From an uncultured Actinomycetota bacterium (GTDB lineage: Bacteria > Actinomycetota > Actinomycetes > JAHEKZ01), in the NCBI GenBank assembly GCA_963743915.1, contig CAVURN010000005.1, forward strand, positions 207,131 through 271,130: a stretch of 64,000 nucleotides of DNA. Direction: 5' to 3'. Under the pieces are notes generated by a model. That model made no database searches. It worked only from the letters and a program-made list of their open reading frames with translations, and had not been told where the DNA came from. A program made the position numbers and the translations under genes. This document shows positions 4,383-55,177 of this stretch, piece by piece (the first letter of the stretch is position 1; each line of letters starts with the position of its first letter).

Positions 4383-6107
4383 CTACCCGGGGTAGGCGGG
4401 ATCGCGCCCTCGACCGACGGTGCGCCACCCCGTCTCGACGTACTCGGCGATCTCGTTCTCCGCGGTGCCGGCCAGGATCAGCTGGTTCGGCGCAGCCGTG
4501 ATCTCCTTCACCGATGCGAGCGAGATGCCAGTGACGGGTTCCACCGTCCCGTTCACGAAGACCGTCGTCGGCTCGAGCGCCGAGCCTCTGGTCCCCCCGA
4601 CCACGACGAGACGATCCGCTCCGGCCCACGACAGCGCACTGACGTCGACCAACGTGAGCTCCACGGGTCGGAACGCCTCGACTTTGGTGTCCCGGCCCGA
4701 GCGCACGATGCGTCCGATGAGCAGTCGGCCCTGTCCCCGCTGGTCGCGCACGACCACGGCGACCCGGGTGCCGTCGACCGAGACCCGGAAACCGGTCAGG
4801 CGTCCTGCGATCGGGGGGAAGGTCACCTGCCGCCACGGTCCGGCGTCGACCGACCGCGACACCTGCGGCACCTCGGCTCCGGTGTCGACCACCCACACAT
4901 CACCCTGACCGTCCACCGACGCGGGCAGCAGGCGCCTCCCGGAGATCTGTCGCGCGACGCCGTCCGAGACGAAGGGGGTGGTGAGCCACAAGGTCCGGGC
5001 GTCAGCACTCAACCCCGTGACCACCGACCCGTCCCAGGACTGCGAGGGGCTCCGCACCTCGCGGTCACCACTTCCCAGCACCCCTTCGGTGGGGACGGGG
5101 TCGCCGTCATCGCTCCAGGAGCTGACCGTCCCTCCCTTCACGAACAGCGCACCGAGCGCCGACACCAAGGCGTCCGAGTCGTACGTCGCCCAGGTGTCGG
5201 CATCCATCACCGCCGGCGCGGTGGGGAGCTGCAGCGGGTTGCCCTCGACACTGATCGTCACCCCGGTGACCTCGGGGATCTGGAGCATCGTCATCGTCAC
5301 CTGGGCAGCCGCGAGCTCGCGATCCTGCACACCCGTGTCGAGGAAGTCTGTGGACAGATCGACCTGAGCGACGCCGTTCTCGACGGGCACCGAGCTGACG
5401 ACCAACGAGGTCCCCACGGGAATCGTGCTCTGCACCGCGGGCCGCAGCCAACGGGTCGGCCCGTCGAGCAGGGCGCGCATCAGGCTGGTGGTGCTACCGG
5501 CCTGCTCCAGCGGGATGTACACGGGGTCGGGGACCAGGAGCGAGCCGTCAGGGTTGAAGAAGAAGGTGTTGAACGCGCGGTACGCGCGTTCAACGTCGAA
5601 CCGGTTGAGCAGGAGACCCTGCGGCAGGTGCCCGATCCGCCACTCACCGTCCACCCGCTGCAGCTGGAACGAGCGCTGGATGGGGATCCCGGCCTCGGGG
5701 GTGAGAGCGCCGTCGACCCCGATGGTGCCCACCTGACGCGCAGACATCAGCACTCGACTGGCCTCCCGGCGCAGCTCGTACCCCGGGATGTCGTCGATGA
5801 CGGTCACCCCGGCGTTGGGGTCCCACCGGGTGGACGCCGCCGGGGTCAGGAAGAGGCGGGCCACCGCGTGGTCGTTCTCGAAGCTGGCCGACGCCGACAG
5901 GAACCCGTTGACGACCTCTTCCGGCGTGGCACCGCTCGCGGGAGCGCGCGGGAGCACCCGGACGATCGGGTCGTCGGCAGCTGCGCGCACCTGGTCACCG
6001 CGCTCCACCGGACCGCTGGTGGGCAGCTCCGCGCACCCGACCGTCACGGTGGCGAGGAGCGCCACCAGCAGCAGGCGGCGGATCCCGGTCCTCGAGGACC
6101 TAGCCAT
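4383..6107 (-). CDS. lpqB: Lipoprotein LpqB
   Basis: Start chosen at ATG 6107 (MARSSRTGIRRLLLVALLATVTVGC lipobox), overlapping the mtrB stop by 8 nt. This is the conserved partner of mtrAB. Confidence 0.8.
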   Translation of the reverse strand: MARSSRTGIRRLLLVALLATVTVGCAELPTSGPVERGDQVRAAADDPIVRVLPRAPASGATPEEVVNGFLSASASFENDHAVARLFLTPAASTRWDPNAGVTVIDDIPGYELRREASRVLMSARQVGTIGVDGALTPEAGIPIQRSFQLQRVDGEWRIGHLPQGLLLNRFDVERAYRAFNTFFFNPDGSLLVPDPVYIPLEQAGSTTSLMRALLDGPTRWLRPAVQSTIPVGTSLVVSSVPVENGVAQVDLSTDFLDTGVQDRELAAAQVTMTMLQIPEVTGVTISVEGNPLQLPTAPAVMDADTWATYDSDALVSALGALFVKGGTVSSWSDDGDPVPTEGVLGSGDREVRSPSQSWDGSVVTGLSADARTLWLTTPFVSDGVARQISGRRLLPASVDGQGDVWVVDTGAEVPQVSRSVDAGPWRQVTFPPIAGRLTGFRVSVDGTRVAVVVRDQRGQGRLLIGRIVRSGRDTKVEAFRPVELTLVDVSALSWAGADRLVVVGGTRGSALEPTTVFVNGTVEPVTGISLASVKEITAAPNQLILAGTAENEIAEYVETGWRTVGRGRDPAYPG

Positions 6108-7773
6108 CTGCTCGACCCTCGGGAGCCGATGACCGCCGCGGGCCGCCGACACTCAGGGGCATCCGACGGCCGGTACGCATGTCCGGCGGGTCAAGCGGAA
6201 GGGGAGCCTTGTCGATCTCCGCACCCAGTCGGCGCGGCAGGGTCAGCCGGAAGCTCGCGCCGTCGCCGGGTTCACCCCACGCCTGCAGCCAGCCACCGTG
6301 GAGGTGGGCGTCCTCGAGGGCGATGGGGAGCCCGAGCCCGGTGCCGCCGAGCGAACGTGCCCGGGCGGGATCGGCCCGCCAGAAGCGGTTGAACACCAGC
6401 GACGACTCACCGGGCCGCAGGCCGGTCCCGTGGTCGCGGACGCAGACGGCCACCGCGTCGTCCGAGACTCCGACTCGGACGTCGATCGGTTCGCCCTCAC
6501 CGTGCTCGAACGCGTTGGCGAGCAGGTTGCGCAGGATGCGGTCGACCCGGCGTGGGTCGTACTCCGCCGTGGCCGGCTCCGCACACGGGTGCAGCCGGAC
6601 CTCGGTGCCCATCCGCTCGGCCAGCGGACGCATCACCTCGACGACGGAGGCGACGGTGTCACGCAGGTCACCGCGGACCGGGTCGAGGGTCGCGGCCCCG
6701 GCATCGAACCGGGAGATCTCGAGGAGGTCGGCAAGCAGAGCCTCGAACCGGTCGAGCTGGTTCTGCAGCAGCTCCGCCGAGCGCGCGGTTGCCGGGTCGA
6801 ACGAGCCTCGCGCCTCGTGCAGCACGTCGGTCGCCATCCGGACGGTGGTGAGGGGTGTGCGCAGCTCGTGGGAGACGTCCGACACGAAGCGGCGCTGCAC
6901 CCGGGACAGGTCCTCGAGCTGGCTGATCTTCAGCTGCAGGCTCTCCGCCATGTCGTTGAAAGACCGGGCCAGCCGCGCCAGGTCGTCCTCGCCGCGGACC
7001 TTCATGCGTTCGGACAGGTGTCCTGCGGAGAACTCCTCGGCGATCGCCGCCGCATAGCGCACCGGGTCGACGACCTGACGCGTGACGAACCACGAGATCC
7101 ACGCGAGCAGCAGCACCAGGACCAGCCCGGCGAACATCAGGGTCCGTTCGACGAGGTCCAGCGTCTGCTGCTCCTGGGTGAGCGGAAAGAGGTAGTAGAG
7201 CTCCGCGGCGCCGAGACCAGGCACATCCAGCGGCGCACCGACCGCGAAGCCCGGCACCGAGGGCCGGCCGTCGCCATAGCTGATCTCGGTGAACGTCGAC
7301 GCCTGCACACCGTCCAGCTGGACGGCCTCCCGCAGGTCCGCCGGCACACTCGCCTCGCGCACCGGGCTGGAGCTGAACTGCTGGAACGACGTCGACGGGC
7401 TCAGCAGCAGGACGTCGTACAGCCGAGGGGTGCCCGCGCCGCGGTTGGCCATCTGGACGAAGACCTGTTGCACCAGCTGCGGAGCAGTGTCCGGGTCGGC
7501 CTGGTCGGATGCCGCGATCAGCGCCTCGGCCTGGTTGAGCCCGGCGCGTGCCTCGACCAGGGAGGCTCGCTGTCGGGCGTCGAGGAGCCCGGAGGTGATG
7601 CGACCGACGAGGATCTGGCCCAGCACGACGACGACGACCAGGGAGAGCGCGAGGGTCGTGGCGACGACCCGCAGGTACAGCGACGAGCGCCAGCGGTGCC
7701 GGACCGCGCCGACGGTCCGGCCCATCCAGCGTCCGACCGGCCCGCGGCCGAGGCTGCCTGCGTGGAGGTCCAT
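6100..7773 (-). CDS. mtrB: Sensor histidine kinase MtrB
   Basis: Two TM segments, HAMP, H-box FVSDVSHELRTPLT, and N/G boxes (LRNLLANAFEHG, DHGTGL, GGTGLGL). Directly downstream of mtrA. Confidence 0.85.
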   Translation of the reverse strand: MDLHAGSLGRGPVGRWMGRTVGAVRHRWRSSLYLRVVATTLALSLVVVVVLGQILVGRITSGLLDARQRASLVEARAGLNQAEALIAASDQADPDTAPQLVQQVFVQMANRGAGTPRLYDVLLLSPSTSFQQFSSSPVREASVPADLREAVQLDGVQASTFTEISYGDGRPSVPGFAVGAPLDVPGLGAAELYYLFPLTQEQQTLDLVERTLMFAGLVLVLLLAWISWFVTRQVVDPVRYAAAIAEEFSAGHLSERMKVRGEDDLARLARSFNDMAESLQLKISQLEDLSRVQRRFVSDVSHELRTPLTTVRMATDVLHEARGSFDPATARSAELLQNQLDRFEALLADLLEISRFDAGAATLDPVRGDLRDTVASVVEVMRPLAERMGTEVRLHPCAEPATAEYDPRRVDRILRNLLANAFEHGEGEPIDVRVGVSDDAVAVCVRDHGTGLRPGESSLVFNRFWRADPARARSLGGTGLGLPIALEDAHLHGGWLQAWGEPGDGASFRLTLPRRLGAEIDKAPLPLDPPDMRTGRRMPLSVGGPRRSSAPEGRADG

Positions 7774-7776
7774 GCC

Positions 7777-8454
7777 CTAGGCCGGACCGGCCTTGTACCC
7801 GACCCCTCGGACGGTCACGACGATCTCCGGGTGCTCGGGGTCGCGCTCGATCTTCGACCGCAGCCGCTGCACGTGGACGTTGACCAACCGGGTGTCCGCC
7901 GCGTGACGGTACCCCCACACCTGCTCGAGCAGGATCTCCCGGGTGAACACCTGCCACGGCTTGCGGGCCAGGGCCACCAGGAGGTCGAACTCCAGCGGTG
8001 TCAGGGAGATCGCCTCGCCGTCCCGCTTGACGGTGTGACCGGGCACGTCGATCGACAGGTCGCCGATCTCCAGCGACTCCGGGCGGCCCTCGTCTGTGCG
8101 GCGCATCCGCGCGCGGATGCGCGCCACGAGCTCCTTCGGTTTGAAGGGCTTGACCACGTAGTCGTCCGCGCCCGTCTCCAGACCGAGCACGACGTCGACC
8201 GTGTCGCCCTTGGCGGTGAGCATGACGATCGGCACCCCGGACTCTGCGCGGATCTCGCGGCAGATCTCGATGCCGTCCCTTCCCGGCAGCATGAGATCGA
8301 GCAGCACCAGGTCGGGGTTGAACTCCTTGAAGGCCGCCACCGCCCGCTCCCCGTCGGCGCACAGATAGGGCTCAAAGCCTTCTCCGCGCAGCACGATGCC
8401 GAGCATCTCCGACAGCGCGGTGTCGTCGTCCACGACCAGGATGCGTCCCTTCAT
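7777..8454 (-). CDS. mtrA: OmpR-family response regulator MtrA
   Basis: Internal ATG 8454 gives MKGRILVVDDD...LDLMLPGRDG and a winged-helix output (LTPLEFDLLVALARKPWQVFTREILLEQVWGY). The upstream part of the 282-aa ORF is Arg/Ala-rich and has no homology pattern. Confidence 0.9.
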   Translation of the reverse strand: MKGRILVVDDDTALSEMLGIVLRGEGFEPYLCADGERAVAAFKEFNPDLVLLDLMLPGRDGIEICREIRAESGVPIVMLTAKGDTVDVVLGLETGADDYVVKPFKPKELVARIRARMRRTDEGRPESLEIGDLSIDVPGHTVKRDGEAISLTPLEFDLLVALARKPWQVFTREILLEQVWGYRHAADTRLVNVHVQRLRSKIERDPEHPEIVVTVRGVGYKAGPA

Positions 8455-8504
8455 GGCGCCCATCGTCGCACCTCGGGCCCGGACGTGGCACCACGACGCT
8501 CCTC

Positions 8505-9497
8505 GTGCCACCGTGGCACGATGGCGCGATGACCGACGACCCCACGCCACCGGACGCGTCGCCGGGCCCGACCCCGCCCACGGCCTGGACGCCGCCGCCG
8601 CCGATGGGGAGCTGGGGACCCCCACCTCCCGCTCAGAAGCCCGGTGTCATCCCCCTGCGTCCGCTCGGCATCCCCGAGCTCCTGGACGGGGCCATCACGG
8701 CCATCCGCCGGTACCCCCGTTCGATCCTTGTGCCGTCGTTCGTCGTGGCGCTCGCCCTCGGGCTGCTGGGGTTCGTCACGTCGCTGCTCACCATCGGGAT
8801 CTACGACGGCCTCGCCGACCTGGACCCGGAGACCGCGAGCGGCAGCGACATCGTCGGTCTCCTCGGGCCGACCCTGCTGCTGACCCTGGTGTCGGCACTC
8901 TTCCAGCTCGTCGCCACGGTGCTGCTCACCGGCATCGTGACGGTCGTGATGGGTGAGGCGGTGCTGGGGCGCGAGATCAGTCTCGAGGAGGCGTGGCAGC
9001 GGGTGCGGCCGCATGCCTGGGCCCTGATCGGGCTCTCGCTGCTGACGACGCTGATCCTGATCCCGCTGTTCCTGCTCTGCGTGCTGCCCGGCATCTGGGT
9101 GGGCGTCGGGCTCTCGCTGGCGTCGGCTGCGCTCGTGCTCGAGCGCTCCGGCGTCGGGGCCGCACTGAGCCGCTCGTGGCAGCTGGTCAAGGGCGCCTGG
9201 TGGCGTACCTTCGGCGCGCTCGCGCTGATGGTGCTGATCTACTTCGTCATCAGCGCCGCCGTCAGCATCCCGTTCTCCGTGCCCGAGTTCGTCGCGCCCT
9301 CGATCGACCCGGTCAACCTGACGGTGGACGAGACCCGCTTCATCATCAACACGACCATCAGCACGGTGGGCAGCGTCATCGTCTCGACCATCACGCTGCC
9401 CTTCGTCGCTGCCGTGATCGCACTGATCTACATCGACCGTCGGATGCGGGTGGAGGGGCTCGACATCACCCTGGCTCGGCAGGCACAGGGGCTGTGA
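8505..9497 (+). CDS. Polytopic membrane protein with Pro-rich N-terminus (function unknown)
   Basis: 330-aa ORF with a PPPP-rich cytoplasmic head followed by several hydrophobic helices. Its stop overlaps the next start (GTGA). The start is uncertain; ATG 8529 is possible. Confidence 0.5.
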   Translation: MPPWHDGAMTDDPTPPDASPGPTPPTAWTPPPPMGSWGPPPPAQKPGVIPLRPLGIPELLDGAITAIRRYPRSILVPSFVVALALGLLGFVTSLLTIGIYDGLADLDPETASGSDIVGLLGPTLLLTLVSALFQLVATVLLTGIVTVVMGEAVLGREISLEEAWQRVRPHAWALIGLSLLTTLILIPLFLLCVLPGIWVGVGLSLASAALVLERSGVGAALSRSWQLVKGAWWRTFGALALMVLIYFVISAAVSIPFSVPEFVAPSIDPVNLTVDETRFIINTTISTVGSVIVSTITLPFVAAVIALIYIDRRMRVEGLDITLARQAQGL

Positions 9498-15923: not shown

Positions 15924-16883
15924 CTACAGCGCCTGGACTCCCGCGTAGCGGGCGTTGGCGATCACGATGCCGGCCGGGGAGCTGACCAGCCGCAGCGTGT
16001 TGAGCGACGTCTCGCCGAAGGCGTTCGCCCGAGCGCTGGAGAGCGCGAGGACGCCCACCATGCGACCGCCGGCCTTCAGCGGCATCGACAGGAAGGTGGC
16101 CATCTCCCCTTCGTCCTCGGCGCCGAGGTTGCCCTCAGGGTCGGCAACCCGTGCCTGAAGGTCCCCGACGGCCACGTCCGCGCCGGTCGTGTCGGACGCC
16201 GCGTCCGCAAGTCCCTCGAAGAACTCCGCGTACTGCTGCTGCGACGTCTCGCGGGCCACCCGGATGTATGTGGAGTGGTCGTCGAGCATCAGCACCGAGG
16301 CGAGGTCGTAGTCGACCACGCGACTGAGCACGTCGAGGACCTCTGCGATCGTCTCCTCGAACCCGTGGACACCCGAGGCGATCTGTGTCACCTCAGCAGC
16401 GATCGACGACTCGAACAGCTTGCGGTCGAGCAGGTCGCTCACGCTGCCGAACACGTCGTCGTCCTGCATCTCGACGGGATCGGGTCGAAGGGGCGGACGC
16501 CCCCCGCGGCCGGCGTCAGCGGTGGCAAGCACCTCGTGGACGGCCTCCACCAGCTGGGGAGCCTCGAAGTCCTTGGTGAGGAAGCGATCGGCGCCGGCCT
16601 GCGCGCCCCAGTAACGGTCGCTGGCAGCGTCGAGCGAGGTCAGCAGCAGGATCGGGATGTCCGCTGTGCGCCAGTCGTCCTTGAGCAACCGGGCGGCCAC
16701 GTAGCCGGAGACGCGGGGCATCTGGACGTCCAGCACCACCGCGTCCGGCATGTGGCGGAACACGAGCTGAACCGCCTGAACCCCGTCCTCGCCCTGGACG
16801 ACCGTGAACCCCTCGCGCTCCAGCACCGTTGACACGATGCGACGCAGCGTGGGGCTGTCGTCCGCAATGACCACCGTCGGCAT
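15924..16883 (-). CDS. Response regulator with CheY-like receiver plus GAF-like domain and no recognisable output domain
   Basis: Receiver domain (VVIADDSPTLRRIV...LDVQMPRVSGY...LLLTS...FLTKDF). The C-terminal ~170 aa has a GAF-like pattern (DYDLASVLMLDD...GRMVGVLALSS). Confidence 0.7.
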   Translation of the reverse strand: MPTVVIADDSPTLRRIVSTVLEREGFTVVQGEDGVQAVQLVFRHMPDAVVLDVQMPRVSGYVAARLLKDDWRTADIPILLLTSLDAASDRYWGAQAGADRFLTKDFEAPQLVEAVHEVLATADAGRGGRPPLRPDPVEMQDDDVFGSVSDLLDRKLFESSIAAEVTQIASGVHGFEETIAEVLDVLSRVVDYDLASVLMLDDHSTYIRVARETSQQQYAEFFEGLADAASDTTGADVAVGDLQARVADPEGNLGAEDEGEMATFLSMPLKAGGRMVGVLALSSARANAFGETSLNTLRLVSSPAGIVIANARYAGVQAL

Positions 16884-16964: not shown

Positions 16965-19175
16965 TCAGCGGCCCACCAGTCGACGGACGGTGTCCACCAG
17001 CTGGTTCTGGTCGAACTCGCTCTTGAGCAGGTAGGCGTTCGCGCCGGCGTCCAGACCGGCCCGCTTGTCCGCCTCGTCCCCCCGGGAGGTCATGATCACC
17101 ACGGGTACGGACTCCCATCCGCGCGTCCGACGGATCGTCCGGGTCAGGGTGAAGCCGTCCATGCCGGGCATCTCGACGTCGGAGAGCACGAGGTCGACGG
17201 GATCCCCACCCAGGCGGGCGGCGCCGTCGGCTCCGTCCACTGCCGTCACGACGTCGTAGCCGGCACCTTCGAGGATCACCCGCTGGAGCTCACGCACGCC
17301 GATCGAGTCCTCGACCACCAGCACCCTTGCGCGTCCACCGCCTCGAGAGCCGGCGGCGGCCGGCGACGCCGGGGCATCGGTTGCACTCTCGACCGGACGC
17401 GCCACCGGGGCATCGAGCGCCACGCCGCGCGCGTACTGCTCGATGGCCAGCTCGCGGACGTCGAGCAGCAGCATGACACTGCCGTCGCTGTCGATGGTGC
17501 CCCCGCCGATGAAGGGAGGGCGTCCCAGGAAGCCGCCGAGGTCCTTGACCACGACCTCGAGCTCACCCTCCAGGGCGTCGACGGCCCAGGCCAGCTGCTC
17601 GGAGGCGTTGCCGTAGCGGACGACGACGCCCACCTTCGTCTCCCGCTCGCTGTGCGCGCCGAGGGCCCGGCCCAGGTCGGCCAACGGGATCGTCGATCCG
17701 TGCCGCACGAGGACCGGCGCGCCCGCGACGGTCGATGTCTCGACGTCGCCCAGGCTGATCGTCTCCACGACGTTCGTCACGGGGACGGCGTAGCGCTCCT
17801 CGCCGAGCCGTGCCACCAGGCACCGCATGACGCCAAGCGTCACCGGGAGGGTCATCACGAAGGTGGTGCCGACGCCGAACTCGCTCTCGATCTCCACCGT
17901 TCCGCCGAGGTCCTCGACCGCCGTGCGGACCACGTCGAGTCCCACGCCCCGTCCGGAGGTGGACGTGACCTCGTCGCGGGTGCTGAAGCCGGGCTGGAAG
18001 AGCACCGAGAAGAGCTGCTGTCCCGTCACCTGGCTGTCCGCGGGAAGCAGCCCACGGTCGATCGCGGAGATCCGGAGCGCCTCCTGGTCGATGCCGTGGC
18101 CGTCGTCGGCCACCTCGATCACGATCGTCGAGCCGGCAGCTCGGGCCGAGACGGTGACGGTGGCCTGAGGCGGCTTGCCGGCAGCAGCGCGCACGTCGGG
18201 TGCGTCGCAGCCGTGGTCGACCGCATTCGTCACCAGGTGACGAAGGGCGTCCGCCACGCCGTCGAGCACGCGGGTGTCGAGCTCGACGTCCTCACCGACC
18301 AGCCGAAGCCGCACGTCCTTGCCAGTCTCGGTCGCCACCTCACGCACCAGCTGCGGGAACGCGGCCACCACCCGACGGACCGGAACCATGGCCAGACCCA
18401 TGGCGCCGTCGCGCACCTGGGCGAGACGGTTCTGCGCGTCCTCCATCGAGCCGCGCATGTCGCGCACAGCTGCCTGGAACTGGTCCCCGAGAGCCACCAG
18501 GGCGTGGATGTTCTCCGACACCTCTGGCGGAAGGGTGACATCGGTGGCCGTGGCCTGACGCAGCAGTCGCACGACGCGGAGGTGCTCGGCCGACATCGCC
18601 GTCAGCTCCAGCACTCCACGTTCGACCCGTCGGGTCTCGAGCTCGGCCTCACCGACCACGTCCAGCAGGGCATGGACCCGGCGGACCGGGACCCGGACCG
18701 ACTCACCCATCTTCGGCCGGTTGTCGACGGTGTCCGTCTCGGTGTCGTCCTCGACGACCGCAGCCCGCGGCACCTCGACCGGGTTCTCCCCGTCGAGAGC
18801 GCTCCCCAACGCGGACACGAGAGCCGCCAGGTCATCGTCGGCGATCGGACGCTCGGAGCCCGGGAGGCCGCGGCGGATGCCTTCGGCAGCCGCGAGCAGC
18901 AGGTCGACCAGGTCGCGTCGAGGGTCGAACCGGCCGTCCCGCACCGCGCCGAGGAGGTCCTCGGAGAGGTGGGCGACCTCGACGACACCCTCGAGACCGA
19001 GCATGCGTGCCGAACCCTTGACGGTGTGGGCGTCGCGGAAGAGAGCCGCGACCAGCTGCCGCGGCTGCGGGTGGCCCTCGAGCTTGAGAAGCCCGTCGCA
19101 GAGCGAAGCCAGACGGTCCTCGACTTCCTGCCGGAACGTCGCCACCAGCTCCGGGTCGTTGGCCCAGCTGCTCAT
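16965..19175 (-). CDS. cheA: Hybrid chemosensory histidine kinase CheA (Hpt-dimerisation-HATPase-CheW-like-REC)
   Basis: Hpt [15 protein letters not shown]; ATPase boxes [30 protein letters not shown]; a CheW-like P5 domain; C-terminal receiver VLVVEDS...[11 protein letters not shown]...LLKS. ATG 19175 overlaps (ATGA) the stop that MCP1 would use without the extra base at 19230. As sequenced, cheA is part of one 1335-aa ORF 16965..20972. Confidence 0.85.
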
Positions 19176-20912
19176 GCGTCCACCTGCTCTCGATTGTCGT
19201 CGGTGGTTTTGAATTGGGCGATGGAGGAGCGACAGGTCGGCGGCGAGGGTGTTCAGCTCGGTCGCGGCGGCGGCGGCCTGCTTGGAGCCGACCGCGTACT
19301 GCCGGGACACATCAGCGACCTGACCCATCGCCGAGACCACCTGCTCCGACGCCGACCTTTGCTGCTGGGTCGCAATGGAAATCTCCTTGGCCGCAGTGGT
19401 CGTCTCATCGACCATCCCAGAGATCTTCTCCAACGCCCCCACCACATCCCGCGCCAACGCCGACCCCGCATGCACCTGCCGCGACCCCTCCTCAGAGGCC
19501 ACGATCGTCGCGTTCGTCTCCGCCTGGATCTGCGTCACGATCGACTGGATCTGCCCCGCCGACTCCTGCGACCGCTCCGCCAACTTCCGGATCTCCGCCG
19601 CCACCACCGCAAACCCCCGACCATGCTCCCCCGCCCGAGCCGCCTCGATCGCCGCATTCAACGCCAACAAATTCGTCTGATCAGCCAACTCATCAATCAC
19701 CTGCAAAATCCGGCCGATCTCCTGACCCTTCTCCCCCAACCCCAACGCCCGCGACGCAATCACATCCACCCGAGCCGCGATCTGATCCATCGACTCCACC
19801 GACGCCGACACCGCCACCTGACCCTGCTCAGCAAACCCCAACGTCTCCGACGCGAACGCCGCCACCTGCTCCGCCGTCTCCGCGATCTGCGCCGCCGTCG
19901 CCGCCAACTCCTCAATCGTCGCGCTCGTCTCCGCCACCGCCGAGGACTGCTGCGACGCAGCAGCCGCCTGCTCCCGAGCCGCCACCAACACCTGAGACGC
20001 CGCCGCCCCAATCCGCTCCCCACCCGACCGCACCCCAGCCACCAACCCCCGCAACGACCCCAACGTGTGATCCAGGGAGCCGGAGAGGGCGAGGATGTAT
20101 TGGCTGCGCTCGAAGCCGAAGTCTGTTCCCTCGTCGAGGTCGGAGACCTCGACCCGCGCGGTGAGGTCACCCTGGGAGGCCGCCTCGAGTGCGACAGACA
20201 GCTGGCGCACCTGGTCGACGAGGAGGGCCTGGTCCCAGCCGGTTCCCTCGGCCGTGTCGTAGAGGGTGCGGCTGACTCCACGGACGATCAGGAAGGCGGC
20301 GGGCAGACCGATGCTGAGGGCCACTACAAGGGTGAAGGTCTGCGACCCAGGTGCGGGGAGCCCTCCGACGGCGATCCACTGGCTGACCGCTGGCAACAGG
20401 GCGAGCAGTGCCGCCATCGCCCAGCCCGACGCGTAGACCAGGACCGTGCCGAGGTAGGCCGAGCCGACCACGACAGGCAGCCACTCCGCGCTGGTCACGC
20501 CCCCCGTCCAGATAGTGGCAAGCGCCACCACGACAACCTGCGCCATGCCCAGCAGGCCGTCCCACCGGTCCGTTCGGGCGTAGGTGTGGTGCTCCCGGTA
20601 GGCGCGGACCGCCAGCAACGACGCGGCAACGGCGATCACCGCTCCGACCGTCCACACCAACCACAGCTGGGCCTGGATCGGCTCCTTCTCCGCGACGTGC
20701 CACAGGAAGCCGATGAGGACGCTGAACGAGACCAGACCCGTGTGCAGAGAGATCGTCTCGCCGACGTTGCGGCGACTGAAGCTGAGGGAGGCGCCCCCCG
20801 CCTTGGTCCGGTCGATCGCGTCCAGGACAGTGCTGACCGACGACTCACTAGACGGCCGTCCGGACGAGACTGCACCCGGCGACGGGTCGAGCGGCGCGCT
20901 CGTCGTGCTCAC
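19172..20912 (-). CDS. Methyl-accepting chemotaxis protein paralog 1 (six-TM sensor), 3' end shifted by a 1-nt insertion so the ORF reads into cheA
   Basis: GTG 20912 is preceded by GGAGGAG. About six hydrophobic helices are followed by the MCP hairpin tip [36 protein letters not shown]. The feature length is 3n+1. End 19172 is the stop in the uninserted frame (..[18 protein letters not shown]). Confidence 0.75.
19198..20076 (-). repeat. MCP signalling-module repeat, copy 1 of 5 (~870 bp, near-identical)
   Basis: Direct comparison with the other four copies. Variant states: C at 19386, C at 19872, extra base at 19230. Confidence 0.9.
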
Positions 20913-21009
20913 TGCTCCTCCTCGAGGCGTGCTGGGCCGCACTGGCTCAGCCCAGGCAGGGACGAGCCACACGGGTTCCTGATGTCAGATCGGCCCGAAC
21001 CAGGCCCGG

Positions 21010-21029
21010 CTGTAGCCCGTTCGGGGGAC
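21010..21029 (-). promoter_or_regulatory. Conserved 20-nt motif ctgtagcccgttcgggggac upstream of MCP1 (also at 26527..26546)
   Basis: An exact 20-nt match in two otherwise dissimilar upstream regions, 98 nt and 59 nt from the MCP1 and MCP4 starts. Function unknown. Confidence 0.3.
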
Positions 21030-21075
21030 AACGGAAAGCGCCAGCGGGTGCCGGATCTGGCCTTACACTGGCCGC

Positions 21076-21513
21076 ATGGCGAGGACCCGCTACCCGCTCC
21101 TGGTTGCGGGCGCGGGCATGGCGCTGCTCTCGGCATGTCAATCCTCAGGCATCAACGATCAGGACGCTTTCCTTGCCGAGGTACAGCTCTGCCCGGCCAC
21201 CGGACGACTCCCCCAGAACCGCACACCCACCTGTGAAGTGCCACCAGAAGGTTTGATCTCCCTTGGCCTTGACGCCTGCAGCTGGCTTCACGGCCAGCCA
21301 TTGGCCCGTCTCAAGCCAGCGTCCCAGCCTTACTGGAAGGACCCCCACGACGTGCATAACGTGGCCAGCCAGTTTGCACGGCAAGAACGCACCACGGCGG
21401 CCGTGCCACTGCAGGACGCCGAACAGTCGAATGTCGCGTACTTCGCCTGGCGCCATCTGTGCCGGGACCTGGAGACCCGGTACAACTTCAACGTGCACGA
21501 ATACTCCGACTGA
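21076..21513 (+). CDS. Putative lipoprotein, Cys-rich, atypical codon usage
   Basis: The signal peptide has lipobox LLSAC. 145 aa. Roughly a quarter of codons end in A/T by eye count, far more than neighbouring genes. It is convergent with MCP2. Confidence 0.55.
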   Translation: MARTRYPLLVAGAGMALLSACQSSGINDQDAFLAEVQLCPATGRLPQNRTPTCEVPPEGLISLGLDACSWLHGQPLARLKPASQPYWKDPHDVHNVASQFARQERTTAAVPLQDAEQSNVAYFAWRHLCRDLETRYNFNVHEYSD

Positions 21514-21554
21514 CCATCCCACGCGGCCCGGCGGAGTGGTGCGGGCGACGGATC

Positions 21555-22418
21555 TGGCTCAGGCGTCGGTGGTTTTGAATTGGGCGATGGAGGAGGACAG
21601 GTCGGCGGCGAGGGTGTTCAGCTCGGTCGCGGCGGCGGCGGCCTGCTTGGAGCCGACCGCGTACTGCCGGGACACATCAGCGACCTGACCCATCGCCGAG
21701 ACCACCTGCTCCGACGCCGACCTTTGCTGCTGGGTCGCAATGGAAATCTCTTTGGCCGCAGTGGTCGTCTCATCGACCATCCCAGAGATCTTCTCCAACG
21801 CCCCCACCACATCCCGCGCCAACGCCGACCCCGCATGCACCTGCCGCGACCCCTCCTCAGAGGCCACGATCGTCGCGTTCGTCTCCGCCTGGATCTGCGT
21901 CACGATCGACTGGATCTGCCCCGCCGACTCCTGCGACCGCTCCGCCAACTTCCGGATCTCCGCCGCCACCACCGCAAACCCCCGACCATGCTCCCCCGCC
22001 CGAGCCGCCTCGATCGCCGCATTCAACGCCAACAAATTCGTCTGATCAGCCAACTCATCAATCACCTGCAAAATCCGGCCGATCTCCTGACCCTTCTCCC
22101 CCAACCCCAACGCCCGCGACGCAATCACATCCACCCGAGCCGCGATCTGATCCATCGACTCCACCGACGCCGACACCGCCACCTGACCCTGCTCAGCAAA
22201 CCCCAACGTCTCCGACGCGAACGCCGCCACCTGCTCCGCCGTCTCCGCGATCTGCGCCGCCGTCGCCGCCAACTCCTCAATCGTCGCGCTCGTCTCCGCC
22301 ACCGCCGAGGACTGCTGCGACGCAGCAGCCGCCTGCTCCCGAGCCGCCACCAACACCTGAGACGCCGCCGCCCCAATCCGCTCCCCACCCGACCGCACCC
22401 CAGCCACCAACCCCCGCA
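21555..22418 (-). repeat. MCP signalling-module repeat, copy 2 of 5
   Basis: Direct comparison. Variant states: T at 21751, C at the site equivalent to 19872, no insertion. Confidence 0.9.
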
Positions 22419-23118
22419 GGTGGCCGAGCGTTTCGTCGAGGGACCCACTCAGCTCCTGCACGAAGACGGGCGCGTCGGCATCCACCGTTCCCAGGGTCAC
22501 CACGAGGTTTCCGCGGGAGACATCGGCCAAAGCTGACGAGAGCTCCTCCACCTTGGCGTTCACCACGTCACGCTCGGCATTGGCCTCGTACCGAAGGTCG
22601 TACAGGTACGACGCTGACTGCTCCATGAACCACGTGCTGAGGGCCAGTCCCAGGGCCACCATCACCCCGACCGGGATCGTCGTGGGCCCCCAGGTGTCGG
22701 TCACGAAGCCCGTCGACAGGAAGGCGAGCGCGAGTCCGACACTCATGAACCGCAGAGTCTTGGGCACGAAGGTGACGCCGAGAAAGGGGATGACCACGAA
22801 GTAGGGAACCCAGGCCACCCCAGCCGGCCCACCGGTCGTGGCCGTCAGCGCGGTGATCGCTCCGAGCTGGAGCCAGACGGTCGGCTGGTCCCAGATTCCG
22901 GTGGTCTCGATCGGCAGCTGCCGGAGCCAGGCACGCGCCGCGAAGGTGGAGGCGACGGCGCCGGTGACACAGGAGAACACCCAGAGGGCAGCGAGAACCG
23001 GCCAGGCGGCGGCCTCAACGTCCAGGTACCGCACCGTGAGCAGCGCAGCCAGGCCCAGCAGCAGGACCACGCCCACATGCAGGCACAAGGTCGACAGGAA
23101 GTCGCGGCGGGTGAACAC
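21559..23118 (-). CDS. Methyl-accepting chemotaxis protein paralog 2 (six-TM sensor), intact
   Basis: GTG 23118 follows GAGGAG. 519 aa, ending ..[17 protein letters not shown]. The signalling domain is identical to the other copies. Confidence 0.85.
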
Positions 23119-23205
23119 GGCACTCCTCGAGGTTCTGGGTCCGTGGGGATCTCCCAGTGGCCCAGTGAAGCGTCGACAGTTCGAGGACTGACCTGAAGAC
23201 CTGCC

Positions 23206-24837
23206 TCAGTGGTGGCTCAGGCGTCGGTGGTTTTGAATTGGGCGATGGAGGAGCGACAGGTCGGCGGCGAGGGTGTTCAGCTCGGTCGCGGCGGCGGCGG
23301 CCTGCTTGGAGCCGACCGCGTACTGCCGGGACACATCAGCGACCTGACCCATCGCCGAGACCACCTGCTCCGACGCCGACCTTTGCTGCTGGGTCGCAAT
23401 GGAAATCTCTTTGGCCGCAGTGGTCGTCTCATCGACCATCCCAGAGATCTTCTCCAACGCCCCCACCACATCCCGCGCCAACGCCGACCCCGCATGCACC
23501 TGCCGCGACCCCTCCTCAGAGGCCACGATCGTCGCGTTCGTCTCCGCCTGGATCTGCGTCACGATCGACTGGATCTGCCCCGCCGACTCCTGCGACCGCT
23601 CCGCCAACTTCCGGATCTCCGCCGCCACCACCGCAAACCCCCGACCATGCTCCCCCGCCCGAGCCGCCTCGATCGCCGCATTCAACGCCAACAAATTCGT
23701 CTGATCAGCCAACTCATCAATCACCTGCAAAATCCGGCCGATCTCCTGACCCTTCTCCCCCAACCCCAACGCCCGCGACGCAATCACATCCACCCGAGCC
23801 GCGATCTGATCCATCGACTCCACCGACGCCGACACCGCCACCTGACCCTGCTCAGCAAACCCCAACGTCTCCGACGCGAACGCCGCCACCTGCTCCGCCG
23901 TCTCCGCGATCTGCGCCGCCGTCGCCGCCAACTCCTCAATCGTCGCGCTCGTCTCCGCCACCGCCGAGGACTGCTGCGACGCAGCAGCCGCCTGCTCCCG
24001 AGCCGCCACCAACACCTGAGACGCCGCCGCCCCAATCCGCTCCCCACCCGACCGCACCCCAGCCACCAACCCCCGCAACGACCCCAACGTGTGATCGAAC
24101 GACTGGGCGAGTCTCTCCACCGCGACCGCGTCGCCCTCGAGGGTCGAGAGCGCGACGGCGTGTCCCACCTCGGCGTCCAACCGGCCAGAAGCGGCCCGCT
24201 CCATCGCCGAGGACAGCTCCTCGACGCGAGTGTCCAGATGCGCGCGACTGCGGGCCAGGGTGTCGGCCTCGTCGTACAACGCGCGCGACAGTGTCCGGAT
24301 CATCAGATAGCTGGTCGGGAGAACGGCACTCAGCGCCGCCGCCAGCAGGATGTCGAACCGGTCCGACGAGGCGGACATGAGGTACACCGCCCATGGCGAC
24401 GCCAGCAGCACAAGAGCGACGTACCAGCGGAGCTCATGGACGAGGGCGCTTGCGAGGTAGGTGAGCGCCACGAAGGAGAGGATCCACAAGGGGCTCTGGG
24501 CGCCGCCCGTCCAGGCCGCGCCCGCAACCACGGCCAGGGTTGCCGCGGCAGCCGTCGGACCGTCCCAGGGGTCGGTCTGGTCGTAGCCGTAGCCTCGACG
24601 CAGTGCCTGCAGGCTCAGCAGCGTGGTCGCCAGGGCCACCAGGATCTGCACACCCATCACGACAGCGATCTGCGGTGGCACGGTGCTGCCGGTGGCCCAC
24701 ACCCAGCCCCCGGTGAGGACCAGGACCCCGAGCACCAGACCCCAGTGGAGAGTGATGGTCTCGACGGCGTTGCGGACGGAGAACCGGACGGATACGTCGG
24801 GTTCTGTCTCGCGAGCTGCCGCTGGCGACGAGCTCAT
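23206..24837 (-). CDS. Methyl-accepting chemotaxis protein paralog 3 (six-TM sensor), alternative C-terminal tail caused by a 1-nt insertion
   Basis: 543 aa. The insertion at 23254 replaces [12 protein letters not shown] with [18 protein letters not shown] 24837 overlaps the MCP4 stop (ATGA). Confidence 0.8.
23213..24096 (-). repeat. MCP signalling-module repeat, copy 3 of 5
   Basis: Direct comparison. Variant states T, C and insertion present. Confidence 0.9.
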
Positions 24838-26468
24838 GGCCCGGCGCCCCCTGACACCCCCGCCGTCTGGTTCTCAACAGGTACGTCATGCGCCTTGAAT
24901 TGGGCGATGGAGGAGGACAGGTCGGCGGCGAGGGTGTTCAGCTCGGTCGCGGCGGCGGCGGCCTGCTTGGAGCCGACCGCGTACTGCCGGGACACATCAG
25001 CGACCTGACCCATCGCCGAGACCACCTGCTCCGACGCCGACCTTTGCTGCTGGGTCGCAATGGAAATCTCCTTGGCCGCAGTGGTCGTCTCATCGACCAT
25101 CCCAGAGATCTTCTCCAACGCCCCCACCACATCCCGCGCCAACGCCGACCCCGCATGCACCTGCCGCGACCCCTCCTCAGAGGCCACGATCGTCGCGTTC
25201 GTCTCCGCCTGGATCTGCGTCACGATCGACTGGATCTGCCCCGCCGACTCCTGCGACCGCTCCGCCAACTTCCGGATCTCCGCCGCCACCACCGCAAACC
25301 CCCGACCATGCTCCCCCGCCCGAGCCGCCTCGATCGCCGCATTCAACGCCAACAAATTCGTCTGATCAGCCAACTCATCAATCACCTGCAAAATCCGGCC
25401 GATCTCCTGACCCTTCTCCCCCAACCCCAACGCCCGCGACGCAATCACATCCACCCGAGCCGCGATCTGATCCATCGACTCCACCGACGCCGACACCGCC
25501 ACCTGACCCTGCTCAGCAAACCCCAACGTCTCCGACGCGAACGCCGCCACCTGCTCAGCCGTCTCCGCGATCTGCGCCGCCGTCGCCGCCAACTCCTCAA
25601 TCGTCGCGCTCGTCTCCGCCACCGCCGAGGACTGCTGCGACGCAGCAGCCGCCTGCTCCCGAGCCGCCACCAACACCTGAGACGCCGCCGCCCCAATCCG
25701 CTCCCCACCCGACCGCACCCCAGCCACCAACCCCCGCAACGACCCCAACGTGTGATCCAGGCGTCCAGCCAGGGATGCCGTCTGGTCGCCCTGCAGGGGC
25801 AGCTGGGCCATGGCCACCTCGAGGTCGCCCGCTGCGACGACGTCGGCAGCCCCCGACAAGGTGGCGACGTCGGACTCGACCGCCTTCCGCGTCGTGTGTG
25901 CCTCGTGCTGGGCGCGCAGCATGCTCATGGTCATCAGGTCGGTGACGGTGGCCAAGATGATGGCGAGCACGCACAGCCCCACGCCGCGTGCTGCTCCCTC
26001 GCCGGACCAGGTGTCTGTCACGAGACCGACGATGCCGATCGCCCCGGCGATGAAGAAGCCAAGGAACCGGGCCACGAACCCGGCGAAGACGCCGCTGGCG
26101 TAGGTGATCATGACCAGCGACAACACAGGCACCGGAGTTTCCAGCCCGCCCGCGAACGCACCCATCGTCAAAGACACCCCGAGCGTCACCGCGGTCGTCG
26201 GACGGTCCCACCGGTCCGTCTCTTCGAAGGAGTCCCCACGACGGACCGCGCGTGTCGACAGCCAGCACACCAGGGCGACGTTGGTGAGCAGGACGGCATA
26301 CAGGCCGACCAGGGCCGGCACCTGAAGCACGATGTGCGGTTCGAAGACCGCCGTGGCCCAGACCAGGACGGGCGCCGCCACCAGCACCCCGAGGTGGGAC
26401 GCGATGGTCTCGGTGCGAGACCGCGCCACATAGGGGATCTCGCTGTAGTCCACGTCGTCGGCGAACAC
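24834..26468 (-). CDS. Methyl-accepting chemotaxis protein paralog 4 (six-TM sensor), intact
   Basis: GTG 26468 follows GGAGGAG. 544 aa, ending ..[27 protein letters not shown]. Confidence 0.85.
24895..25761 (-). repeat. MCP signalling-module repeat, copy 4 of 5
   Basis: Direct comparison. Variant states C, A and no insertion. Confidence 0.9.
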
Positions 26469-26526
26469 CGGCGCTCCTCCATCTTGATCGGGTGATCAGT
26501 ACCTCTTCGACCAGCCCTGAAGGTGC

Positions 26527-26546
26527 CTGTAGCCCGTTCGGGGGAC
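26527..26546 (-). promoter_or_regulatory. Conserved 20-nt motif ctgtagcccgttcgggggac upstream of MCP4
   Basis: Exact repeat of 21010..21029, in the 130-nt gap between MCP5 and MCP4. Confidence 0.3.
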
Positions 26547-26598
26547 TGCCCACGATCTGTCACATCGCGATCCGGGTCTTCTCCGGCACCGCTCGCGC

Positions 26599-28203
26599 TC
26601 AGACCTTGGAACGCTCCAAGGGGGGTTCGGCGTCGGTGGTTTTGAATTGGGCGATGGAGGAGCGACAGGTCGGCGGCGAGGGTGTTCAGCTCGGTCGCGG
26701 CGGCGGCGGCCTGCTTGGAGCCGACCGCGTACTGCCGGGACACATCAGCGACCTGACCCATCGCCGAGACCACCTGCTCCGACGCCGACCTTTGCTGCTG
26801 GGTCGCAATGGAAATCTCTTTGGCCGCAGTGGTCGTCTCATCGACCATCCCAGAGATCTTCTCCAACGCCCCCACCACATCCCGCGCCAACGCCGACCCC
26901 GCATGCACCTGCCGCGACCCCTCCTCAGAGGCCACGATCGTCGCGTTCGTCTCCGCCTGGATCTGCGTCACGATCGACTGGATCTGCCCCGCCGACTCCT
27001 GCGACCGCTCCGCCAACTTCCGGATCTCCGCCGCCACCACCGCAAACCCCCGACCATGCTCCCCCGCCCGAGCCGCCTCGATCGCCGCATTCAACGCCAA
27101 CAAATTCGTCTGATCAGCCAACTCATCAATCACCTGCAAAATCCGGCCGATCTCCTGACCCTTCTCCCCCAACCCCAACGCCCGCGACGCAATCACATCC
27201 ACCCGAGCCGCGATCTGATCCATCGACTCCACCGACGCCGACACCGCCACCTGACCCTGCTCAGCAAACCCCAACGTCTCCGACGCGAACGCCGCCACCT
27301 GCTCAGCCGTCTCCGCGATCTGCGCCGCCGTCGCCGCCAACTCCTCAATCGTCGCGCTCGTCTCCGCCACCGCCGAGGACTGCTGCGACGCAGCAGCCGC
27401 CTGCTCCCGAGCCGCCACCAACACCTGAGACGCCGCCGCCCCAATCCGCTCCCCACCCGACCGCACCCCAGCCACCAACCCCCGCAACGACCCCACGGTT
27501 CGGTCGAGTGCGTGACCAAGCTCGTCGAGCTGCTCGGCCCGTGCTCCCACGTCGTCGCGCAGCGTCCAGGTGTTCGCCTCACGGTGACCGTCAGGTCGCC
27601 CTCGGCGGTCTCGACGAGCACGCGGGAGAGCTCCTCCACCCGGCTGCTGACCGCCGCCTCGAGCTGTTCGGCGGTGAAGCGCTCGGCATACAGGTCCGAG
27701 GCATAGAAGTAGACGACACCGACCAGGAAGGTCAGCGTGGCGCCGACGAGCAGACCGGTCTGCCAGTGGTCGGTCCAGGTGTCGGAGTACCAGCCGGCGA
27801 TTCCGACCGAGGCACCCACCAGCAGGAGCCCACCGCGCAGCGAGTAGCCCAGCTCCACCGACATCCCCAGGTAGGGCGCCCACAGGAAAGCGAGAAAGAG
27901 GGTCGGCGCCGCCAGCCCGCCGGTGACGGCCACCAGGACGGCGACGAGCAGGATGCTCACGTACGTGGTGACGCTCTCCCAGCGCATCGTGTCGACGAGT
28001 GACTGCCCCTGGTGAACGGCGCGCACCGCGAGTCCGGTGACCGACAGCGCGTTCGCCAGCAGCAGGCCGACCGTGACGGCAGCACCCAGCCGGTGGGCGT
28101 CGGTGTCGATCGTCGACCACGCCATCCAGGTCGTCAGGACGGCCGCCAGCAGGACGATCCAGTGCTGGCCACTCGACTCGATGCTGTTACGACGGGTGTA
28201 CAC
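26599..28203 (-). pseudogene. Methyl-accepting chemotaxis protein paralog 5, disrupted by two frame changes as sequenced
   Basis: The six-TM N-terminus is in the frame of ORF 27193..28203, and the signalling domain is in the frame of ORF 26186..28120. The junction lies after ..AEGDLTVTV, near 27575-27585. The insertion at 26663 also removes the normal stop (26599), so the ORF runs on to 26186. Confidence 0.7.
26629..27495 (-). repeat. MCP signalling-module repeat, copy 5 of 5
   Basis: Direct comparison. Variant states T, A and insertion present. Confidence 0.9.
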
Positions 28204-28232: not shown

Positions 28233-28739
28233 TCAGACAGCCGCTCGACGCGCTGACGGAAGCTGGTCGCGCAGACGCAGGACCGCCTCGGTCGCGAGCA
28301 GCGCGACCGGACCGTCGACGTCCACGACCCCCTGCACGAGGGGTGCGATACCGGTCGCGATGGTCGCGGGGATCGGCTCGAGCGCGTTGGGGTCACAGTC
28401 GAGCAGGCCCGGCACCATGTCCGCGACGAGACCGACCTCGACGTCGTCCTCGGACAGCACGACGAGGCGGGCACTCGTGGGCATCGGCGACAGCGGTGCC
28501 CCCACAAGCGGCCGCAGGTCGACCACGGGCAGGACGCGCCCGCGCCAGTTCACGACGCCGGAGAGCCAAGCCGGGGCGCCGGGAACGCGGGTCACGACGG
28601 GGACCGGGACCACCTCGGCGACGCTGGCCATGTCCACGGCATAACGGGCTCCGGCGAAGCGCAGGATCACCCCGCCGATCGGCGCGACGTGCTCGTCGGC
28701 CTCGGCGGCGTCGGCAAGGCTGGTCGGTGCTGACTCCAC
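28233..28739 (-). CDS. cheW: CheW-like coupling protein
   Basis: The pattern RFAGARYAVDMASVAEVV...PGAPAWLSGVVNWRGRVLPVVDLRPL...VGLVADMV is typical of CheW. GTG 28739 was chosen because the upstream part of the ORF overlaps the FtsH-like gene in another frame. Confidence 0.75.
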   Translation of the reverse strand: MESAPTSLADAAEADEHVAPIGGVILRFAGARYAVDMASVAEVVPVPVVTRVPGAPAWLSGVVNWRGRVLPVVDLRPLVGAPLSPMPTSARLVVLSEDDVEVGLVADMVPGLLDCDPNALEPIPATIATGIAPLVQGVVDVDGPVALLATEAVLRLRDQLPSARRAAV

Positions 28740-28783
28740 GGACAGACCATCGGCCGTCCGGGTGACGACCTGAAGTGCCGAGA

Positions 28784-52467: not shown

Positions 52468-52529
52468 GAGCCACCATCGTACGGACGCGCCTGACCGGAC
52501 TTGTCAGTCCCTCCGGGCACTCTGGTGCC

Positions 52530-53648: not shown

Positions 53649-53684
53649 CCTGACGGGACTGCTGAAGGCCTTACGGTAGGCGGT

Positions 53685-54149: not shown

Positions 54150-54161
54150 CGGTGACCCCCG

Positions 54162-55124: not shown

Positions 55125-55177
55125 GCCTCCATCGTAGGTGGCCGAGTCAGGGACGCGACCGGTGGAAGAGCGGCGGC

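Follow-up and report, generated by a model that had tools for sequence, protein, structure and literature searches.

The 64-kb stretch of DNA from an uncultured soil bacterium of the Actinomycetota that was analysed here (hereafter, the window) carries a minimal Che-type signalling operon, composed of cheW, five genes for methyl-accepting chemotaxis proteins (MCPs), a cheA gene with a C-terminal receiver (REC) domain and a gene for a REC-GAF response regulator. The listing of open reading frames (ORFs) and repeat finding place the five MCP genes head-to-tail on the minus strand between 19.2 and 28.2 kb, and a GAGGAG-type ribosome-binding site is present before each of them. The MCPs are associated with CheA and CheW by position: cheW lies upstream of them and cheA-REC downstream, and in the ancestral arrangement the stop codon of the last MCP gene overlaps the cheA start codon as ATGA. 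Each MCP gene joins a 5′ half, coding for a membrane sensor of its own, to a 3′ signalling module that is almost the same to the base in all five copies. We report here that this module probably evolves in concert within each genome, and that its coding strand shows a codon-position bias that the sensor halves of the same genes do not have.

The modules form direct repeats in register, starting on the + strand at positions 19231, 21596, 23255, 24916 and 26664. In each copy the module comprises 842-843 nt; it begins with CGG, the codon for the Arg of RGLVAGV, and extends to CAATTCAA, close to the stop codon. A column-by-column comparison of the five copies showed just two variable columns within a core of 823 nt. 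Both single-nucleotide polymorphisms (SNPs) are synonymous, as the translations of the copies are identical; the third variant site is a 1-nt indel (Table 1). An earlier note on this DNA had described the five minus-strand 3′ segments as nearly base-identical and had traced their differences to two synonymous substitutions and one 1-nt indel. These data agree with it, and the five haplotypes that it listed were reproduced exactly. All four combinations of alleles (four gametes) are found at each of the three pairs of variant sites. The stretch of about 285 residues said to be letter-identical is indeed identical in all five copies, but its length is 274 amino acids (RGLVAGV to DLS). The abrupt loss of identity at the linker/signalling junction, at slightly different points in different copies, was likewise found: at the 5′ edge, where the HAMP and signalling parts meet, identity is lost within ~10-30 nt, first in copy 2, then in copy 5 and then in the remaining copies. 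At the 3′ edge it is lost just beyond CAATTCAA.

Table 1. Features of the MCP array and its signalling operon, with the variant sites of the repeated module (positions in the window).
Feature	Position	Strand	Remarks
cheW, first gene of the cluster	28233..28754	-	Pfam CheW E=3e-29; single tblastn segment 28754-28239, 82% identity to L003 CheW
MCP gene 5 sensor half (six transmembrane helices + HAMP-like linker), frame broken at ~27550-27580	27485..28203	-	GTG start, GAGGAGG ribosome-binding site
Homogenised signalling module, copy 5	26642..27484	-	haplotype T/A/ins; wobble G 0.71, C 0.14
MCP gene 4 sensor half	25737..26468	-	within ORF 24834-26468; wobble composition normal
Homogenised signalling module, copy 4	24895..25736	-	haplotype C/A/none; canonical tail
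MCP gene 3 sensor half	24076..24837	-	ATG overlaps gene 4 stop codon (ATGA)
Homogenised signalling module, copy 3	23233..24075	-	haplotype T/C/ins; frameshifted tail
MCP gene 2 sensor half, sequence taken for structure model	22417..23118	-	AlphaFold2
Homogenised signalling module, copy 2	21575..22416	-	haplotype T/C/none; canonical tail; Pfam MCPsignal E=3e-43
MCP gene 1 sensor half, likely GTG start at 20912	20052..20912	-	ribosome-binding site GAGGAGGAG
Homogenised signalling module, copy 1	19209..20051	-	haplotype C/C/ins; shifted frame reads on into cheA
cheA with C-terminal receiver (Hpt-HATPase-CheW-REC)	16965..19175	-	Pfam; ATG 19175-19173; single tblastn segment, 82% identity to L004 CheA
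REC-GAF response regulator	15924..16883	-	Pfam Response_reg + GAF; downstream of cheA in all related loci
Synonymous SNP 1	19386; equivalents 21751, 23410, 25071, 26819		states in copies 1-5: C/T/T/C/T
Synonymous SNP 2	19872; equivalents 22237, 23896, 25557, 27305		states in copies 1-5: C/C/C/A/A
1-nt indel	19230; equivalents 23254, 26663		extra base in copies 1, 3, 5

Orthologous loci with 3-7 tandem MCP genes were recovered by protein search and contig look-ups, and a scan of a genome collection with CheA gave about 50 actinobacterial loci; the loci fetched for comparison are labelled L001, L002 and so on. The relatives are metagenome-assembled genomes (MAGs) of uncultured Actinomycetota labelled Sporichthyaceae or Frankiales. 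In DNA sequence, the modules agree to 98-100% within each of eight related multicopy assemblies and to 86-95% from one genome to another. The within-genome figure leaves out three divergent or broken copies: L001_2 (L001 8397-10004), which is 74% identical to its neighbours and still has a G/T-rich wobble position (skew +0.71); L006_3 (L006 6630-8255), 63% identical to its neighbours and with normal wobble composition (skew +0.10); and L002_5, a broken copy with 94% identity. The sensor halves behave in another way, as they pair across genomes by array position. Conservation is widest for those in the first and last positions, with variation among the interior ones: the gene 5 sensor has orthologues in L002_1, L001_1, L005_1 and L006_1, that of gene 4 in L002_2, L003_2, L005_5 and L006_6, that of gene 3 in L002_3, and that of gene 1, in the last position, in L002_5, L001_4, L003_3, L005_6 and L006_7. 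Orthologous sensors of the window and L002 share 85-93% of their nucleotides, versus about 65% for paralogous sensors, which are nearly unalignable. As the sensors have orthologues in other genomes, the paralogues must be older than the species splits. Modules thus group by genome and sensors by position, which is the pattern that the earlier note had proposed to look for in related genomes.

These comparisons bear on whether the array could be explained without any exchange between copies, either by recent duplications of whole genes followed by very fast divergence of the sensors, or by strong purifying selection on the modules. Tandem duplication is a common source of paralogues, and the signalling domain is generally the most conserved part of an MCP. 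Nevertheless, the sensors are orthologous across genomes while the modules coalesce within them, and the identity of the modules extends to synonymous sites. The modules of the window and L002 differ by 29 synonymous and 5 non-synonymous codon differences, and the five copies of the window by 2 synonymous ones only; as the differences between genomes are mostly synonymous, purifying selection cannot account for the identity within a genome. Four-gamete mosaics, which also speak against an explanation by duplication or selection, were found not only in the window but also in L005 and L006. We consequently give this explanation next to no probability.

Further signs of exchange come from two strains that are 99.0% identical and originate from different samples, L003 and L004. 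Copies 2 and 3 differ from their counterparts in the other strain at the same two module positions, and at one shared variable site the alleles occupy different copies in each strain. Divergence of the modules between these two strains is about 0.24%, which is below the locus average of about 0.9%. Array size varies from 3 to 7 copies among close relatives, with the first and last sensors kept, and in about 20 relatives at a greater distance, among them the isolate Longivirga aurantiaca, a single MCP gene lies beside cheA. Taking all these patterns together, recurrent gene conversion within the array, along with unequal crossing-over, would maintain the module by concerted evolution, a reading to which we assign a probability of roughly 85%. 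It is in line with the preference of the earlier note for repeated gene conversion over one recent duplication, as the modules coalesce per genome, the sensors are orthologous and mosaics are found again in L005 and L006. Readings as a diversity-generating retroelement or as an integron cassette were also considered and rejected: the copies are identical and not diversified, and no reverse transcriptase or integrase was found among the ORFs screened with Pfam.

A different concern is that the identity of the modules could be an artefact of assembly or polishing, in which multi-mapped reads spread one consensus over copies that are truly different, the mosaic then being polishing noise. The related contigs are Nanopore metagenome assemblies from the Microflora Danica MAGs (PMC12313526), and the window is very probably an assembly of the same kind. 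Some of the sister contigs (L002, L005, L087) contain many broken genes, and the frame disruptions of the window are confined to the array or its immediate edge. On the other hand, the same pattern is found across more than eight independent assemblies from different samples, each with a module sequence of its own. The repeats are 0.84 kb long and set between unique sensors, so that long reads should span them and anchor the copies. Nine neighbouring genes of the window each align to their orthologue as a single frame-consistent segment; the window is therefore not generally error-ridden, and widespread frameshift errors could be ruled out. Moreover, the wobble bias described below, in which nearly only G and T are used, recurs in an independent JGI contig and in a short-read MAG contig, and short-read contigs break inside the module. 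Contigs of this kind from close relatives (L007 1-206; L046 1-193) start within the terminal ~90-130 nt of the module, directly upstream of cheA; a break of this sort is expected where a genuine repeat is being assembled. In short-read assemblies multicopy arrays are probably collapsed or broken. An artefact of this type is, in our opinion, very improbable. Further contigs (L010, L038, L048) begin at or within cheA.

The reading frames at the 3′ end of the modules were examined separately. The indel site at 19230 lies outside any homopolymer, and slipped-strand phase variation was for this reason discarded. In relatives, the tail of the module is GACCTCCGCTCCTCC (DLRSS). The window allele with the extra base, GACCTGTCGCTCCTCC, puts the final ~12 codons of copies 1, 3 and 5 out of frame; the allele that lacks this base, GACCTGTCCTCCTCC (DLSSS), returns to the correct frame. 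In copy 1, reading continues after the shift into cheA, which gives, as assembled, an ORF of 1315 amino acids (16965-20912) that encodes an MCP-CheA-REC fusion. As the array holds both tail alleles, conversion could in principle toggle this fusion. Gene 5 shows +1, -1 and -1 indels with respect to L002_1 in its unique HAMP linker, at ~27550-27580. The net change is -1, which leaves sensor and module in different frames; gene 5 is either a pseudogene or the product of a consensus error, and at most four of the five genes are consequently intact as assembled. The last ~12 codons of the homogenised tract (19209-19245 and equivalents; TCC ATC GCC CAA TTC AAA/G) are rich in C and A and include the rare codons CAA and AAA. 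This CAA/AAA tail is conserved at the nucleotide level across the clade of the window (L001-L006), and distant relatives have CAG and AAG or CGG; the stretch may be a boundary element or an element for translational coupling.

The coding strand of the converted tract is depleted of C and A at synonymous sites. In the composition profile, the GC skew of the + strand is -0.4 to -0.48 over each module of the window. On the coding strand, the skew of the modules is +0.34 to +0.46 for all positions and +0.67 to +0.94 at the wobble position, where the frequencies are 0.59-0.71 for G, 0.02-0.15 for C, 0.00-0.01 for A and 0.13-0.33 for T. In the sensors of the same genes, wobble G and C are each about 0.3-0.5. 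The bias is also absent from cheA, cheW and ftsH (wobble GC skew of -0.07 to -0.13). A strand bias affecting the whole transcript could be ruled out, as the bias is lacking in the sensor parts of these genes. The profile is step-like: the bias sets in with codon 1 of the module and tails off 12-30 codons ahead of the stop codon.

At the wobble position, C accounts for 2-15% in the converted tract, compared with about 45% otherwise. As reference for composition we used 15 single-copy orthologous modules. At fourfold degenerate sites, C represents 8% in multicopy modules and 54% in single-copy orthologues, and G 69% and 37%, respectively. Among twofold codons, T is used in 74% of those ending in a pyrimidine (8% in single-copy orthologues) and A in 2% of those ending in a purine (9%); Leu is encoded by TTG in 79% of the cases, versus 6%. 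At wobble positions with C in the single-copy consensus, multicopy modules show T in 155, G in 103 and C in 54 instances, and wobble G of the consensus is retained in 211 of 224 cases. The ratio of C to T is equal at twofold and fourfold sites (~0.35). Runs of at least three G number 18-26 per module and runs of at least three C 0-3, compared with 2-14 and 2-12 in the single-copy orthologues; the trinucleotides TGG, GTG and GGT together reach ~105-120 per kb, versus 35-80 per kb. Amino-acid composition drifts slightly towards residues with G/T-rich codons, with Gly and Val up and Thr, Asp and His down.

The same bias was found in assemblies of other origin. In the independent JGI contig, wobble skew rises from -0.19 in the sensor to +0.91 across the module and returns to +0.03 in the gene that follows, and a short-read MAG contig likewise shows a wobble position restricted to G and T. 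Two paralogues in L003 and L005 have about 300 nt more in common upstream of the module, comprising the sixth transmembrane helix (TM6) and HAMP, and this additional stretch likewise uses only G and T at the wobble position. The orthologous TM6/HAMP stretch is unique in the window, L002 and L006, where nearly the same residues are encoded with ordinary C-rich wobble. As this stretch is G/T-only solely where it is repeated, the bias follows repeat status and not protein domain.

With respect to its evolutionary history, in a neighbour-joining tree of CheA the clade of the window and L006 and the clade of L012 and L013 are each sister to a single-copy lineage without skew (L009, L011). This placement suggests at least two joint changes of bias and copy number. 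Horizontal transfer of the module from one multicopy clade to the other was considered as an explanation and rejected: the window module shows 57 non-synonymous codon differences from L012 and 52 from the single-copy L009. As its protein is no closer to L012 than to L009, the additional synonymous similarity of the window to L012 represents convergent codon usage.

It could be argued that the preference for G and T at the wobble position is unrelated to recombination and results from selection on mRNA or translation (for instance RNA structure, codon speed or avoidance of an antisense product). The bias is in fact limited to coding sequence, amino acids are preserved, and the last codons of the tract escape. 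We consider this explanation unlikely, since single-copy orthologues encode the same domain with normal codons, the bias reaches the TM6 and HAMP codons just in those genomes in which this stretch is repeated, and it appears to have been gained or lost together with copy number in two clades. The slight drift of the amino-acid composition towards G/T-rich codons is a further argument against it.

We propose the following model for the array. A single receptor of the type that most relatives have at this position, built of six transmembrane (TM) helices, a HAMP-like linker and a long hairpin for signalling, would have been amplified into a tandem array in this lineage. The sensor-plus-HAMP halves would then evolve independently and be inherited as orthologues, and the 843-nt kinase-control module would be kept identical by frequent, short and non-reciprocal exchange between copies. 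This exchange is presumed to be homologous, to proceed in short tracts and, probably, to depend on RecA. Unequal crossing-over between modules would alter copy number, from 3 to 7. The constant 5′ boundary would be self-maintaining, as homology stops there and conversion into the sensors would erase their specificity. In chemoreceptor arrays, matching hairpin length and tip sequence are required for mixed trimers of dimers on one CheA/CheW lattice. The expected outcome of the model is that all receptors present the same hairpin to a single CheW and a single CheA, so that mixed arrays could sense different membrane-level inputs.

Two origins of the bias can be envisaged. On the one hand, it may be a mutational footprint: the coding strand would be repeatedly single-stranded in D-loops or R-loops and be deaminated from C to T and from A to G, and in a genome rich in GC the changes would collect in G as a sink. 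The equal C:T ratio at twofold and fourfold sites supports this origin. On the other hand, the composition itself may promote exchange, through a preference of RecA for GT-rich single-stranded DNA, through G runs able to form G-quadruplexes (G4), or through R-loops. RecA has been shown to favour single-stranded DNA with TGG repeats or Chi-like sequences (PMC3763553). A search of the general literature on R-loops and GC skew returned eukaryote-centred reviews only. Neither origin alone neatly explains both the frequent C-to-G changes and the unbiased last codons, and the bias may be either a footprint or a promoter of conversion. We put forward only tentatively, as a possibility somewhat below even odds, that the module is a recombination-specialised element that is recoded to a nearly C-free wobble of G and T on the non-template strand when the receptor becomes multicopy (on two occasions) and that its composition is tied mechanistically to conversion, either as driver of an exchange dependent on RecA, R-loops or G4 or as its strand-specific footprint.

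Several points weigh against the interpretation of the array as a tract shaped by conversion. Conversion itself is read from patterns in the sequences. The indel states and the frameshifts of gene 5 could be consensus errors of a Nanopore metagenome, and those four-gamete pairs that involve the indel depend on indel states as assembled. The last ~12-30 codons of the tract are not depleted of C, so that the bias does not fully match the converted stretch at its 3′ end. C-to-G changes are frequent at fourfold sites (103, versus 155 C-to-T), which simple deamination does not predict. Finally, the reading of two origins of the bias rests on an unsupported neighbour-joining tree of CheA.

To characterise the receptors, the sensor half of gene 2 was modelled with AlphaFold2 from an alignment of 21 sequences of the window and its relatives. 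The model is confident (predicted local distance difference test, pLDDT, of 91.4) and shows six TM helices, the last of which continues into a two-helix unit of HAMP-like type that carries a conserved G-D-L motif; the six-TM architecture given in the earlier note is thus supported. Pfam HAMP matched the linker weakly (E=0.02-0.07, below the cut-off). The sensor halves matched no Pfam family, and comparison of the model with the PDB by Foldseek gave no fold match at E<=0.001; human adenylyl cyclase 5 came nearest with its 6-TM part (TM-score 0.56, E=3.5), a loose resemblance which is not significant. Among the 21 sequences, protein identity of sensor plus linker is 25-56%, with an invariant His in TM1, Trp-Asp after TM2, Gly-Gly in TM3 and Tyr in TM4. 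These residues suggest a ligand or cofactor site common to the 6-TM sensors. For the five different membrane inputs named in the earlier note, five is an upper bound, as gene 5 is disrupted and three tails are frameshifted. With regard to the signalling half, MCPsignal (PF00015) was found in genes 1-4 (Pfam E=1e-42 to 3e-43). The module aligns almost without gaps over 244 residues with the hairpin of Thermotoga maritima TM1143 (2CH7; E=1.5e-26), tip motif included, and is ~28 residues longer than the aligned part of Escherichia coli Tsr.

The REC-GAF response regulator is likely the output of the pathway. A Pfam screen of ~40 large ORFs in the window detected no cheB, cheR or flagellar genes; cheB and cheR may be located elsewhere in the genome. 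The cluster is flanked by a gene for an FtsH-like protease on one side and by genes for a flavin reductase and a VanW protein on the other. MCP genes 2 and 1 are separated by ~650 nt, and on the opposite strand this interval carries an ORF of 145 amino acids (21076-21513, +) with a lipoprotein-type signal (..LLSAC..), for which tblastn found no homologue in any of the related loci fetched; GC content is lower around it (0.63-0.66). Elsewhere in the window (4383-8625, 2928-3548 and 52461-56425) there is a housekeeping context including mtrA-mtrB-lpqB, the hpf ribosome hibernation factor gene, rmuC, ispH (LytB) and xseA, with no link to the array.

The array would represent a replicated natural example of partial-gene concerted evolution in bacteria, in which a constant signalling module is combined with diversifying sensors. 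It bears on the question of how a repertoire of receptors can expand without losing its fit to a single kinase and a single coupling protein. As short-read assemblies break inside the repeat, arrays of this type are hard to see in short-read MAGs. Should the link between bias and conversion be mechanistic, the question of why some bacterial repeats convert efficiently becomes testable.

Concerted evolution is classically known from rRNA operons and tuf genes, whose paralogues are more alike within a genome than between genomes and are kept so by homologous recombination. In the array described here, only part of the gene is homogenised and the 5′ boundary coincides with a domain junction, which yields chimeric genes with a shared and a private half. 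Tandem or paralogous chemoreceptors with more conserved C-terminal halves are represented by mcpA-mcpB-tlpA-tlpB of Bacillus subtilis, tar-tap of E. coli and pctABC of Pseudomonas aeruginosa; to our knowledge, the DNA sequences of these paralogues have drifted apart and base identity is not maintained among them. A literature search on concerted evolution of chemoreceptors returned nothing relevant.

The earlier note could match the array to no described system. In this respect it has to be corrected, as Tlp2, Tlp3, Tlp4 and Tlp11 of Campylobacter jejuni represent a described case that matches it (PMC9769880, PMC6433261). Their signalling halves are identical, their sensors are ~30% identical and the shared halves are large DNA repeats which recombine; the tree of the signalling domain follows the genome tree and that of the sensors does not. 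An identical signalling domain on sensors of low identity is hence common to Tlp2/3/4 and the window, and the concept is not new. The systems differ in several respects. The C. jejuni genes are dispersed or interrupted by other genes and mediate large inversions, whereas those of the window form a head-to-tail operon array. The C. jejuni receptors have periplasmic dCache domains, belong to class 28H and serve flagellar chemotaxis, whereas those of the window have 6-TM sensors and a longer hairpin, with no cheB or cheR found in the window. The portions consulted of both papers make no mention of a strand-specific codon bias for the Tlps.

Strand-specific recoding of a converted tract was found described only for an unrelated system, the vls cassettes of Borrelia. 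These undergo segmental gene conversion, have a coding-strand GC skew of ~0.52 and contain G runs, both features being absent from a non-variable homologue, and skew and G runs are thought to be important for exchange (PMC11499132, PMC3585125). The vls cassettes and the array of the window share a contiguous arrangement of converting copies and a coding-strand GC skew with G runs specific to these copies. As the genome of the window has 69% GC, its signal consists in depletion of C and not in raised GC when compared with vls. The vls cassettes are silent and promoterless, donate unidirectionally into one expression site and diversify a surface antigen; in the window, each copy belongs to a gene that brings its own start codon and ribosome-binding site (gene 5 being frame-disrupted as assembled), and exchange would homogenise a cytoplasmic module. 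If the association of bias and conversion holds true, it would provide a mechanistic tie to Borrelia vls and a computable sequence marker of active conversion tracts in any bacterial genome. In comparison with the systems known, what distinguishes the present one is that the array, in Actinomycetota, is arranged head-to-tail like an operon, that its 6-TM sensors are uncharacterised, that the Che cluster is minimal and has a REC-GAF regulator as output, that base identity of the modules is repeated in many genomes and that the wobble position of the tract is recoded in a strand-specific manner.

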